Origin: Paludibacter sp.
Lineage (GTDB): Bacteria; Bacteroidota; Bacteroidia; Bacteroidales; Paludibacteraceae
Assembly: GCA_034927635.1 (NCBI GenBank)
Contig: JAYFPP010000215.1
Location: forward strand, 6,868-70,867
Direction of reading: 5' to 3'
DNA length: 64,000 nt
The first letter of the stretch is position 1, and each line of letters begins with the position of its first letter. Positions 44,618-48,272 of this stretch are shown here, piece by piece. Below the pieces are notes generated by a model. It was not told where the DNA came from and did no database searches. It was given only the letters and a program-made list of their open reading frames with translations. The position numbers and the translations under genes are program-made.

Positions 44618-44651
44618 AAAAGAGAGACGTGACATGCCACGTCTCTCTTTT
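44618..44651. terminator. Bidirectional intrinsic terminator
   Basis: AAAAGAGAGACGTG-N6-CACGTCTCTCTTTT between convergent genes. Confidence 0.88.
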
Positions 44652-44668
44652 TTGATGCTCACGACGAA

Positions 44669-47600
44669 CTAATCAACAACTACCATCCGATTTGCTTTCG
44701 TATAAATTTCTTTATCGACAGTTTTTATCCTTGCCCGGTAGAAATAAACTCCTGCAATGACCTTTTGTCCGCTGTCGGTGGTTAAATCCCAGGATATTTT
44801 ATTCTGTTCCGGGGATGATAAAGTGCAGACCTTCCTCCCTGAAATATCAAATATATCAATTGAGCAACTCACAATATTATCATAATTGTTTATGACAAAA
44901 CAGGTTTGACCTTTTGCCGGATTCGGATAATTTGTTACTGCAATTTCCGAAGTAGATTTATCTTCATCAGGATTAATAACTCCGGCAGTGTTATCAGTTC
45001 CTCCCACGATAAATTCTTCAAAATAACCCATCGCTTCATAATTGTTTGAATCGTCCTGTGCATAATAACAGACTTTCCCTCTACCAAAATCTTCATCGAT
45101 TGCTTTTGGCAGCGTAAATGAACAGGTAAACTCTCCGTTAACAACAGTTGCGGTTCCTGAATATAAAACAGTCGGACGATCATTGTATACAAAAGCAGGT
45201 TCGTAATTGTAATTACTGTTTCTCAGAGTGGTGTCCGATTGAACTCTGCCGTACAAACTCAGTTGTATTGTTCCATTGAAATCAGCTACTTTGTTGGAAT
45301 TCTCATCCACAATGCTCCCCTCAAAGGTATTAGCCGAGTTTGCTTTCAGGGTATCGCTTCCAAAGCTGTTGTTATCATTTATTTTGTTTGTAATTATCCT
45401 GTAATTATCGGCGTAGTTGAGCCGGATGGCAGGGTCGCCCAGATAAATAAATGATAGTTTGTTAATTTCCGAATAGAGTTGGTTCTTAGCTTTTCTGATC
45501 GCATCGCCTACCCGCAAATGTTGTCCGTTTTCTTTTTTGAACAGGTACCGGATAAGATAATCATTGAGTCCGAAATTCTGGGAGGCATATGTAAGCCGTG
45601 CAGCCGACAATACCCCGATTCCACCACCGACAGGATTCAAAAGAACATTTTCGCCGGCCGAAATACTTTTTGAGTCAGATTTTACAAAATCAGAAGTGGC
45701 TCCAAACCAGAGGGGTAAATGCTCGTTTGTCAATCGGGTAATGTCGGTATTGGTAAGGATTTGTTCGTTGGCCCAAAACTGGCTGCTTCCATGTCCGGTA
45801 TAATTTAGCAACAGCAGTCCCTTCTCCAGAGCATTCAGCAAACTGTCCTTTACCGCCGGATATCTGCCCATTATTTCAAGACTGTCTTTTTTGAAAGCAT
45901 CAAGATAGATTTTTTTTGTGTAATAGGATTTGTGGTTGTTGTTGATATAGGACGCGAGGCTGTCAGCCATCTTCATATGAATATTATAATCGCCGTCGTC
46001 GCCGATAAAGCAAAGTTCTCTTTTCCATTTACCTTTGCCGGTATTGTTCATGTAGCTGATCGTCTTGTTTACCACATCGTTAGCTTGCTGAACAGTTGTG
46101 ACGGGGAACCTCCCGACGGCAATATCCATGGTGTGTGATGGCACTTGCAGCCCTTCTTTATCTTCCAGAAAGGTGAAATAATCATCGGTTGTGTAGGCAT
46201 ATGTTTCAATCAGGGAATTTTCGGCTTGATAGGTCAGTACCAGATTGTCACCCGAATCAGACAATATCTTTCTGTTGTCAAAACTGCCTCTTCCAAAAAG
46301 TAATAAATATTTCGGGAGATTGGCAGTGTTGCCTGAAGCGACGGCGCGATCGTAAAACATCTTCATAATCCGGCGATAAGCGGTGGCATCAGGATTTCCC
46401 GACGAAAACTCATTGTATACCTGTTCGGTTGTTGCAACCGTCACCGTCATATCATCCTTTTGCCGGTGTGCCTGCGCCAGTGTTTCGGCCTGCGTCAGGA
46501 AACCGGGATAAGTGATGATGACCATGTCGGCCTGTTCGATGGCGTGAATGTTTTGATTGGAGACAACTCCGACTATCTCGGGTTTGGCAAATGCCGATGC
46601 TGCTTTCGGATCAATCGCCAGATAATGTTTGACCTCATTCCCGGAATCTATAAAGCTTATTTTCCCATTAATGTTTTCAGTGGTAATGCCGATGATGTTT
46701 TGTTGATCGGTGATGTCCCAAATTTGCACCTGCTGATTGTCGGTACTCAATAGGTATTGATTGTAGGTATTCATTCCTAAATAGTCGATATTCTGAAATT
46801 GCATAACCGGTCCGCTCATGGTCAGTTGACGGCGGATATTGACTTCCAGAAAATTCAGATAGCCTTTGGAAGTTGGTGTAGGCATAGAATAAGTCATATT
46901 AAACTCGAACAAATCGTTTTGCGGTGTGAAAGTGAAGATGCCCGCGTTCCTTTTTGCTCTCTCGTAAGGGTCGTAAGAGTTTTGTGCAGCAACGTTCAAT
47001 GTTTGATGCTGATTGCCGTTTAAGTTGAGAATGAATGACGACTGGGAAGCGGAGGCGGATGTGGCTGCAACATCCAGATTCACTTTAATGGCGTTCTCAG
47101 CTAATACAGGATTTGGAAAATTAAAGATATATTTATGGGCGGTGCCACTGCTAAATGTCTCGCCATAAAATTCTTTGCCTGCATTCACTAAATTGATAAG
47201 ATCCCGTTCATGCACCTGATAATCGATAAATTGGGTGACAGGATTTATCGTCGGATTTGAAGGTAATGCTATTGTTCTCTCCTGAATTTTCTTTCCTGTA
47301 CCAGCATTCGATGTTACAAAATAATATCCGGCATTGGAATAAATGTTTGCAATGTGTACAAACATCGATTTGTTTGTGTTGTACGACCAACGGGTGCTGC
47401 CCTGTGCATAGAACAAAACATAATCACCGGCATTAAAAACACCATCATTTCCTTTTTCCATCCATATAGCGATTTCCGGTAAATCATCAATTGTTGGAAG
47501 TGAGAAATCCTGTTCGAGCATTGCTCCGCCATAGCCGAAAACACGAATATTTTCCGGGACTATTCCCATGGCAGTTAAATCTTCGAAAGTGAGTTTGTAG

Positions 47601-47788
47601 ACTCCGCTGTTTGAAACTTTAATTTTGTGAAATGTTCCCTGAGATAAAACGGAATTTGCCGTGTAGGAGTGAATTGCTCCTGAAATACTGCGATTCGGAC
47701 TTTCAGAATCATTTTTTGATTCCTGTGCGCTGATTAAGGACAAGGCCAAAAGCGCAAAACAAAAGGATAATGCTTTTTTAATGTTCAT
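44669..47788 (-). CDS. porU: PorU-like T9SS sortase homolog (peptidase C25) with Cys-to-Ser at the catalytic position
   Basis: HKIKVSNSGVYKL, GKEFYGE, YNEFSSGNPDATAYR, YLLLFG, IAVGRFPV, NYTGHG, FIYLGDPAIRL; GATSDF where ATCxF is expected. Confidence 0.85.
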   Translation of the reverse strand: MNIKKALSFCFALLALSLISAQESKNDSESPNRSISGAIHSYTANSVLSQGTFHKIKVSNSGVYKLTFEDLTAMGIVPENIRVFGYGGAMLEQDFSLPTIDDLPEIAIWMEKGNDGVFNAGDYVLFYAQGSTRWSYNTNKSMFVHIANIYSNAGYYFVTSNAGTGKKIQERTIALPSNPTINPVTQFIDYQVHERDLINLVNAGKEFYGETFSSGTAHKYIFNFPNPVLAENAIKVNLDVAATSASASQSSFILNLNGNQHQTLNVAAQNSYDPYERAKRNAGIFTFTPQNDLFEFNMTYSMPTPTSKGYLNFLEVNIRRQLTMSGPVMQFQNIDYLGMNTYNQYLLSTDNQQVQIWDITDQQNIIGITTENINGKISFIDSGNEVKHYLAIDPKAASAFAKPEIVGVVSNQNIHAIEQADMVIITYPGFLTQAETLAQAHRQKDDMTVTVATTEQVYNEFSSGNPDATAYRRIMKMFYDRAVASGNTANLPKYLLLFGRGSFDNRKILSDSGDNLVLTYQAENSLIETYAYTTDDYFTFLEDKEGLQVPSHTMDIAVGRFPVTTVQQANDVVNKTISYMNNTGKGKWKRELCFIGDDGDYNIHMKMADSLASYINNNHKSYYTKKIYLDAFKKDSLEIMGRYPAVKDSLLNALEKGLLLLNYTGHGSSQFWANEQILTNTDITRLTNEHLPLWFGATSDFVKSDSKSISAGENVLLNPVGGGIGVLSAARLTYASQNFGLNDYLIRYLFKKENGQHLRVGDAIRKAKNQLYSEINKLSFIYLGDPAIRLNYADNYRIITNKINDNNSFGSDTLKANSANTFEGSIVDENSNKVADFNGTIQLSLYGRVQSDTTLRNSNYNYEPAFVYNDRPTVLYSGTATVVNGEFTCSFTLPKAIDEDFGRGKVCYYAQDDSNNYEAMGYFEEFIVGGTDNTAGVINPDEDKSTSEIAVTNYPNPAKGQTCFVINNYDNIVSCSIDIFDISGRKVCTLSSPEQNKISWDLTTDSGQKVIAGVYFYRARIKTVDKEIYTKANRMVVVD

Positions 47789-48058
47789 GTCAGAATTAAA
47801 TAAATGTTAGAGATTATGTTGATTAAGAAAAATAATCAGTTGGGAATGAACTTTCTCGTGTATTTATTTATTCATAGACATGAAATAATTGATTTTTAGT
47901 GTGTGATAATTAATGGATGAAAGTCTGAAGTTTTTATGGCGTTCAGACCTTAAACGACATTTCAAAAAATATATTGTTAAGACATACTGCAATTCAGAAA
48001 ATCCTGTAATTGTCCCGATTTTTTTGTATTAACATTTCGCAGAGTAAAAAAAACTTAT

Positions 48059-48066
48059 TATATTTG
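48059..48066 (+). promoter_or_regulatory. -7 promoter element of the tRNA cluster
   Basis: TATATTTG followed by CA, upstream of the tRNA-like units and tRNAs. Confidence 0.65.
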
Positions 48067-48080
48067 CAGCCGCTTTGAAG

Positions 48081-48108
48081 ATAGCGAATAGCTAATAGCT
48101 AATAGCGA
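48081..48108. repeat. Heptamer tandem repeat ATAGC(G/T)A x4
   Basis: atagcga atagcta atagcta atagcga. Confidence 0.8.
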
Positions 48109-48113
48109 AGAAT

Positions 48114-48247
48114 GCGAAAATAGCTCAGTTGCCGGAAAACAGACACGAAGGTGCTCTGCCAACTGAGTTTAAGTCAGAAAAGATTATTCAATGCGAAAAT
48201 AGCTCAGTTGCCAAGAAATAGACACGAAAAGTGCTCTACCAACTGAG
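48114..48247 (+). repeat. Two mosaic tRNA-derived units (48114-48167 and 48193-48247)
   Basis: Each is tRNA-Gly nt 1-18 (GCGAAAATAGCTCAGTTG), then AGACACGAA as in tRNA-Leu, then GTGCTCT(G/A)CCAACTGAG, the reverse complement of the tRNA-Gly D-arm. Confidence 0.85.
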
Positions 48248-48272
48248 ATACGATTAGCGAATAATTAAAACT

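Follow-up and report, generated by a model that had tools for sequence, protein, structure and literature searches.

A stretch of 64,000 nucleotides from a metagenome-assembled genome (MAG) of Paludibacter sp. (assembly GCA_034927635.1, contig JAYFPP010000215.1, our contig C257; in the following, the window means this whole stretch) harbours a paralogue of PorU, the T9SS (type IX secretion system) sortase, in which the catalytic cysteine is replaced by serine. The gene occupies positions 44669-47788 of the minus strand, to which all features given below belong unless stated otherwise, and forms a complete open reading frame (ORF) of 1039 amino acids. The NCBIfam PorU model NF033707 recognises the encoded protein with 946 bits (cut-off 420) over profile positions 1-873 of 1095, Pfam PF01364 (Peptidase_C25) matches residues 422-790 over its full length (334 bits, profile 1-374/374), and the top sequence match in the PDB is PorU of P. 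gingivalis (6za2, E 4e-131, HMMER alignment), with residues 33-922 aligned over 6za2 19-917. Membership in PorU2 (NCBIfam NF052324), another named PorU-related family, was rejected, as the score of 147 bits falls short of the cut-off (450).

The protein starts with a signal peptide (residues 1-21, 47726-47788; MNIKKALSFCFALLALSLISA followed by QES), which was read from the sequence and coincides with a helix at residues 3-15 in the structure model. Its removal would leave an N-terminal Gln, presumably in agreement with the Q-rule of Bacteroidetes. It is followed by N-terminal beta-rich PorU domains (residues 33-420, 46529-47692), which align to 6za2 19-408 and are all-beta in the model, and by the C25 domain of gingipain/caspase fold (residues 422-790, 45419-46525), which is conserved better than any other part of the sequence, with regional ratios of non-synonymous to synonymous substitution rates (dN/dS or omega) of 0.03-0.28. 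The beta-sandwich domains 3' of C25 (residues 796-933, 44990-45403) align to 6za2 up to 917 and appear as strands in the model, and a short linker (residues 934-949, 44942-44989) of low confidence, with a predicted local distance difference test score (pLDDT) below 50 at 934-947, leads to a T9SS type A C-terminal sorting domain (CTD; residues 950-1039, 44672-44941). This CTD was recognised by TIGR04183 (29.3 bits, cut-off 23), stayed slightly under the cut-off of PF18962 (24.5 vs 27), aligns to 6za2 1058-1154, is modelled as a beta region of seven strands (950-1037) and matches the CTD of the canonical PorU of the same genome in type and length. It contains cysteines at residues 963, 975 and 988, which roughly every second Cys-less paralogue shares, as compared with 0-1% of canonical PorU CTDs; residue 963 is Ser in the gene of a near-identical strain. 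The AlphaFold2 model was built on a 40-sequence alignment (mean pLDDT 79, predicted template modelling score 0.76), and its best fold match in the PDB is again 6za2 (E 4e-66, template modelling score 0.55), with gingipains (1cvr, 4rbm) next.

In P. gingivalis PorU, C690 is the catalytic cysteine (PMC5121618, PMC4560394), and a conserved Arg (R722) follows 32 residues past it (PMC4560394; Gorasia 2015). The original prediction had placed the His of the window protein at 45791-45793 and, exactly 33 residues further on as in the PorU dyad, a Ser codon TCT at 45692-45694; both the sequence and the alignment to 6za2 bear this out. The minus strand reads AAT TAT ACC GGA CAT GGA AGC AGC (NYTGHGSS), in which CAT encodes His666 at the position of PorU His657, and 33 codons on GGA GCC ACT TCT GAT TTT (GATSDF), in which TCT encodes Ser699 at the position of Cys690; the HMMER alignment sets LPLWFGATSDF over MPIWITATCDF. 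In the model, His666 and Ser699 are each found directly behind a beta-strand, as the fold predicts. The same codons, CAT at 666 and TCT at 699, were found in an independent Logan assembly (run SRR28386957), where a 1039-aa gene with 99.3% nucleotide identity was traced via the 90%-identity cluster of the window protein; it differs from the window gene by 8 synonymous and 15 non-synonymous changes, none of them between residues 475 and 805. TCT is also present in an 85%-identical orthologue from another species genome (L011/L056), and Ser was found in four metagenomic proteins of 77-85% identity and one 98%-identical fragment (P0001-P0004, P0018). Ser699 is not an error, because TCT recurs in the assembly from a separate run and in the 85%-identical orthologue.

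The MAG comprises 3.34 Mb in 289 contigs and carries three C25/PorU genes. The canonical copy on contig C117 (1132 aa, His/Cys) is followed immediately by porV (C117:18741-19874), the only full-scoring PorV of the genome (500 bits). The copy on contig C249 (1264 aa, His/Cys) is extended at its N-terminus, the whole contig being devoid of PorV-like genes, and the window gene (His/Ser) stands alone. An intact ORF without adjoining porV had been predicted, and this holds, the neighbours being a convergent acyl-CoA ligase gene downstream and divergent genes for tRNA-Gly and tRNA-Leu upstream. This order is identical in six other Paludibacter assemblies, and the window gene occupies a stable chromosomal locus. 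Between the gene and the ligase gene, a 15-bp hairpin (44618-44651, without strand) probably serves both as a shared terminator, and the window gene would therefore be monocistronic. The upstream intergenic region extends to the divergent tRNA-Gly gene (47789-48272), and conservation across four orthologous loci is seen in its final ~110 bases. The prediction of six T9SS cargo genes in the window was correct in so far as there are six TIGR04183 hits, but one of them is the tail of the window gene itself; about 120 type A sorting-domain proteins are encoded in the genome. Regarding the features that characterise PorU, the window protein possesses the profile match, the His and the Arg, and lacks the Cys, the full domain set and the adjacent porV.

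Relatives without the catalytic cysteine and the missing pre-CTD domain

Relatives were drawn from a collection of 5.8 billion proteins. In the closest ones (1021-1068 aa, 55-85% identity), the Cys site is occupied by Ser, Ala or Thr and the His site by His, Lys, Ile, Met, Gln, Asn, Val or Arg, the flanking motifs NYTG.G and LP.W.GAT.DF.KFD being constant. Orthologues at 61-77% identity have Ala or Thr at the Cys site, the His is replaced by K, I, M, Q, N, V or R in 13 of 34 Cys-less relatives, and the fragment P0017 with 83% identity has Gln in its place. The codons found at the Cys site (TCT for Ser, GCA or GCT for Ala, ACA for Thr) are consistent with a single-step path from TGT via TCT. 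We read Ser699 as a one-base entry state towards any small residue and not as a replacement nucleophile, and the pattern fits catalytic positions that change as though unconstrained, except that the Cys site is confined to small residues.

Among 121 genomes sampled across the genera of the family, most possess a single PorU gene, and every PorU outside the Paludibacter paralogue clade is of the His/Cys type. Within the genus, about 15 of 102 species genomes contain an extra copy of the window type, always beside a canonical copy; nine of these extra copies are without Cys, four are His/Cys, and the others are interrupted or incomplete. The idea that PorU duplication generally leads to Cys loss was rejected, as the duplicated PorUs, tandem or dispersed, in five other genera all retain His, Cys and Arg. 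Tandem PorU pairs were observed in three other genera, in five genomes altogether (L091-L095), and His, Cys and Arg are intact in both copies.

Trees were calculated with the 'quick' and 'fasttree' methods. One of 72 rows, rooted on a distant PorU, places the extra copies in one clade of 43 rows (Shimodaira-Hasegawa-like approximate likelihood ratio 99), which is nested in the 1264-aa Paludibacter PorUs and does not group with those PorUs of the window's own subclade that are linked to porV. None of the examined members of the clade is linked to porV. The tree requires a minimum of five switches between Cys and non-Cys; counted by residue, the Cys site changed 10 times and the His site 8 times. 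If all Cys-less proteins, a group chosen after the tree was seen, are constrained to be a single clade, it becomes worse by 516 log-likelihood units (approximately unbiased test, p-AU 2e-38). The clade also includes two short proteins (P0015/P0016) and the locus L061 in genome G191, which are on a long branch and show His/Cys, yet have Thr733 and Asn591 as in the Cys-less members; their state may be due to a Ser-to-Cys reversion.

All members of the paralogue clade are without a domain of ~110-140 amino acids that is situated between the last beta-sandwich and the CTD in canonical PorU (C117 916-1039; 6za2 ~918-1057). In the window protein, a 16-residue linker stands in its place, and the short forms of the clade are also without the N-terminal extension. 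In a global survey of 1.84 billion representatives at 50% identity, the best 150 were aligned together with the window protein and the canonical C117 protein (152 in total). Considering the full-length proteins, the Cys is kept in 139/139 with the pre-CTD domain, and four of the six without it lack the Cys. These six belong to three separate lineages: the Paludibacter clade, the single protein P0152, and P0217 together with P0235, the latter being listed at NCBI as 'type IX secretion system sortase PorU'. Because the loss of the pre-CTD domain precedes repeated losses of the Cys, we suspect from this sequence pattern that the domain may be needed for productive catalysis in vivo. Cys-less PorU is restricted mainly to part of one genus rich in uncultured members, with rare parallels elsewhere.

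Retained positions, selection and recombination

In the region of residues 400-800, approximately 90 positions show an invariance of at least 97% among 134 His/Cys PorUs, and these positions were compared with the 34 Cys-less proteins. The Cys-less proteins retain essentially all of them, including Arg731 (45596-45598; the equivalent of PorU Arg722, kept in 33/34), Asp597-Asp598 (45995-46000; kept in all, with Asp598 lying over RgpB Glu152 in the alignment to 1cvr), Asp705 and Glu713. Seven positions make the exception, at which the canonical residue is kept in 0% (C699), 6% (V733), 18% (Q591), 44% (A646), 62% (H666) and 74% (N590 and G640) of the Cys-less set. The His/Cys members of the clade mostly retain N590, Q591, G640, A646 and V733, too. 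In the window protein, Arg590-Glu591 (46016-46021) replace the canonical, invariant Asn-Gln, which is relaxed in the alignment of the Cys-less set, and Thr733 (45590-45592) replaces a Val found in 99% of the canonical set, the position being T, S, C or N in 32 of 34 Cys-less paralogues. The change of V733 was observed in at least three separate lineages of Cys loss and in two distant Cys-less representatives, and a link between the two changes is suggestive, the four to five independent contrasts being not significant. Residue 733 (Thr/Ser/Cys) as replacement nucleophile was ruled out, since the proteins without His are unable to use it. Likewise, a search for a compensating nucleophile within the C25 domain revealed no Cys or other residue that is conserved specifically in the Cys-less set.

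Pairwise estimates according to Nei and Gojobori gave dN/dS values of 0.12-0.23 for the Cys-less paralogue (unsaturated pairs), compared with 0.05-0.07 when canonical porU was taken from these genome pairs; the adjacent ligase gene showed 0.03-0.06. Analysed by region, dN/dS of the paralogue never exceeded 0.4, and in the active-site block (residues 661-740) it amounted to 0.03-0.15 vs 0.005-0.03 for canonical porU. It follows from the overall and regional values that the window gene is under clear purifying selection, which is relaxed two- to three-fold.

The synonymous divergence (dS) between Paludibacter species (loci L007-L012) is 0.26-0.55 for the window gene as compared with ~2.4-2.6 for the adjacent ligase gene, and it is also far below that of canonical porU. 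Moreover, dS varies as a mosaic along the gene, with 1.2 in the N-terminal half vs 0.2 in residues 661-795 between genomes G000 and G161. The low and mosaic dS looks like recent allele exchange between species, limited to this single gene. The L007-L012 orthologues possess two unrelated types of signal peptide and upstream sequence (MNIKKALSF...ISAQES vs MKRKIAIMSF...ILCTQEV), whose distribution disagrees with the remainder of the gene tree, a further sign of recombination at the locus.

A probable non-catalytic PorU paralogue and competing explanations

We consider it likely that the window gene encodes a conserved, non-catalytic PorU paralogue, i.e. a pseudo-sortase, that is maintained under selection. 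As judged from the sequence, the folded and exported protein has no more need of thiol catalysis and almost certainly does not perform it any longer. It corresponds to the operational definition of a pseudoenzyme, being an enzyme homologue under purifying selection from which an essential catalytic residue is gone. The original prediction had proposed either a pseudo-enzyme or a paralogue with a serine nucleophile. The first part is sustained by two of the checks it had named: the canonical porU-porV pair was found elsewhere in the genome, on contig C117, and phylogeny and dN/dS showed that the substitution is not a singleton and that the gene is under purifying selection. The second part could not be upheld in view of the orthologues with Ala or Thr and the frequent replacement of the His. 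The roles it had put forward, i.e. a scaffold or regulator of the attachment complex or a release of cargo in place of anchoring, are hypothetical. The absent pre-CTD domain and its coupling with the loss of the Cys had been overlooked.

The following history might have led to the present situation. A PorU gene would have been duplicated within Paludibacter, and the copy would then have existed without the pre-CTD domain and unlinked to porV. Next, the catalytic Cys may have been lost repeatedly by a change of TGT to TCT (Ser) and onward to Ala or Thr, with the His free to drift and the rest of the cleft, i.e. Arg731, Asp597/598, Asp705 and Glu713, remaining frozen. Because a signal peptide and a PorU-type CTD are present, the product is probably secreted via T9SS and held on PorV like PorU itself, whose CTD in P. 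gingivalis remains uncleaved and binds PorV (PMC10202324). The kept cleft would probably bind the cleavage-site region of cargo proteins or a partner such as active PorU without any cutting. Our best guess is that the window protein docks on the same PorV as active PorU and binds cargo or active PorU in a non-cutting manner, which would make it a subunit without catalytic activity that holds or regulates, next to the true porU-porV attachment complex. Our confidence in any specific role of the pseudo-sortase is low. A more far-reaching proposal, which we regard as unlikely, is that the deletion of the pre-CTD domain turned PorU into a class of non-catalytic T9SS accessory proteins in at least three independent lineages; such proteins would dock on PorV and grip cargo at its cleavage-site region, or pair with active PorU at the interface of the latency dimer, and would thereby decide whether particular cargo proteins are held, anchored or released.

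Several points weigh against the pseudo-sortase reading. The proteins P0015, P0016 and P0076 as well as the 1157-aa forms within the clade retain His/Cys, and the clade is therefore not uniformly dead. Its dN/dS is two to three times that of canonical porU and reached 0.52 between two near-identical strains, a value based on 23 differences only. The short-paralogue copy of a related species (G179, C3:54232-57046) is broken by TAA and TAG stop codons, which means that the function is dispensable in some lineages. The copy in G208 (C195:1-1644) is interrupted as well, by an in-frame TAG, and the two broken copies indicate that the gene is undergoing loss in some species. Furthermore, the active-site block has an omega of only 0.027 in the subclade of 5-6 sequences that keep His and Ser, as would be expected of an active Ser-His enzyme, too, the binding or regulatory role is a step that we infer beyond these data, and the fast tree methods as well as the late choice of the tested group have to be kept in mind.

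The best surviving alternative, though an improbable one, assumes that the window's own subclade represents a working serine-type PorU. Ser699 and His666 would then form an oxy-ester acyl-enzyme that cleaves CTDs and perhaps favours hydrolysis, i.e. cargo release, over transfer to lipopolysaccharide. In line with this, the window protein and the 4-5 proteins nearest to it possess His666, Ser699, Arg731 as well as Asp598, the TCT codon has been retained across a dS of ~0.7, and the low omega of the active-site block in this subclade points in the same direction. However, sister lineages at the same orthologous locus carry Lys/Ala, His/Thr, Ile/Ala or Met/Ala at the dyad positions and are equally conserved elsewhere, so that a function shared with them cannot depend on a His/Ser dyad, and the 83%-identical P0017 has Gln at the His site. 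Moreover, there is no newly conserved residue that could form a Ser-type triad or an oxyanion hole, and a change from Cys to Ser normally inactivates peptidases of the caspase fold (clan CD).

Slightly less probable still is the view that the window gene is a superfluous copy in the course of being lost, with the Cys change as the first lesion under relaxed selection and no function of its own. The elevated dN/dS, including the value of 0.52 at strain level, the stop-broken copy in G179 and the in-frame TAG in G208 would agree with such decay, as would the presence of the paralogue in only ~15/102 species genomes of the genus. Against it, the full-length frame is open in at least nine species genomes and in dozens of metagenome sequences down to 55% identity, overall omega is ~0.1-0.2 and low in all regions, the changes are limited to a handful of active-site positions with nearly all invariant PorU positions kept, and the locus is conserved. 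Finally, a sequencing or assembly error in this one MAG, with TGT as the true codon, has a negligible probability and is effectively refuted already: TCT is only one base off TGT and the source genome is fragmented into 289 contigs, but the same codon occurs in the Logan assembly of SRR28386957 (99.3% identity) and in L011/L056, and Ser is found in P0001-P0004 and P0018.

Compared with P. gingivalis PorU (6za2), the pseudo-sortase has the common architecture from the N-terminal beta domains through C25 to the beta-sandwiches, a CTD of the uncleaved type, the same His position, the Arg (R722 = R731) and the 33-residue spacing of the dyad. It differs by the exchange of Cys690 for Ser, by ~140 missing residues (6za2 918-1057) and by its genomic position, being a third copy next to a canonical porU-porV pair and not itself located beside porV. 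The thiol is lost at the same position in the engineered variant C690A, the standard inactive PorU mutant (PMC5121618), of which the orthologues with K/A, I/A, M/A and H/A can be seen as natural equivalents. However, the laboratory mutation replaces the sole PorU and makes the strain secretion-defective, whereas the Cys-less protein of the window occurs alongside an intact PorU and is itself conserved. With the gingipains RgpB and Kgp (family C25, caspase-like fold), the window protein shares the fold of the catalytic domain, the His-Gly motif and an acidic residue at the position of RgpB Glu152. This residue has a role in the gingipain. The sequence similarity is distant (E ~1e-4), and the gingipains, being proteases secreted as cargo, have their Cys intact, whereas the window protein is without Cys and possesses the N-terminal domains specific to PorU. 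Pseudo-proteases with a caspase fold, for example inactive caspase-like regulators such as c-FLIP, also kept the scaffold and binding surfaces, lost the nucleophile, are under purifying selection and exist together with an active paralogue. They belong to another kingdom, pathway and domain context, and a pairing of the window protein with its active paralogue is hypothetical.

In the type IX attachment complex, PorU is regarded as a single and essential enzyme of the Cys/His type, and no description of Cys-less homologues was found in the literature searched. How cargo is chosen for release or anchoring is an unsolved question (review PMC10202324). A conserved natural PorU without Cys beside an active one would be a probe for the non-catalytic functions of PorU, such as docking on PorV, recognition of cargo and latency of the dimer. 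The name 'type IX secretion system sortase PorU' assigned by annotation pipelines overstates the capability of the Cys-less proteins.

Further PorV- and PorU-type genes of the genome

Genomes carrying the paralogue possess a single PorV each. Contig C158 (C158:38281-39477) encodes a third outer-membrane protein of the PorV/PorQ family, which scores 179 bits on the PorV model (cut-off 250) and has a CTD protein encoded two genes downstream. As a dedicated PorV-like partner of the pseudo-sortase it was rejected, since it occurs in 3/102 genomes of the genus and in 0 other genomes with a dead PorU; one of the three copies of this type has stop codons.

The paralogue on C249 (C249:42754-47738, locus L002, on a contig of 50 kb) is flanked on both sides by genes for two paralogous Cys-rich proteins of 139-140 amino acids with signal peptides, which carry MKNLLSILFAVLILLSGMHL...ICVFRI. 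A Pfam search with these small proteins and with the canonical pre-CTD domain matched no family. The closest relatives of the C249 protein share the motif APTCDFNIFD, and together they may represent a second class of PorU copies that are unlinked to porV.

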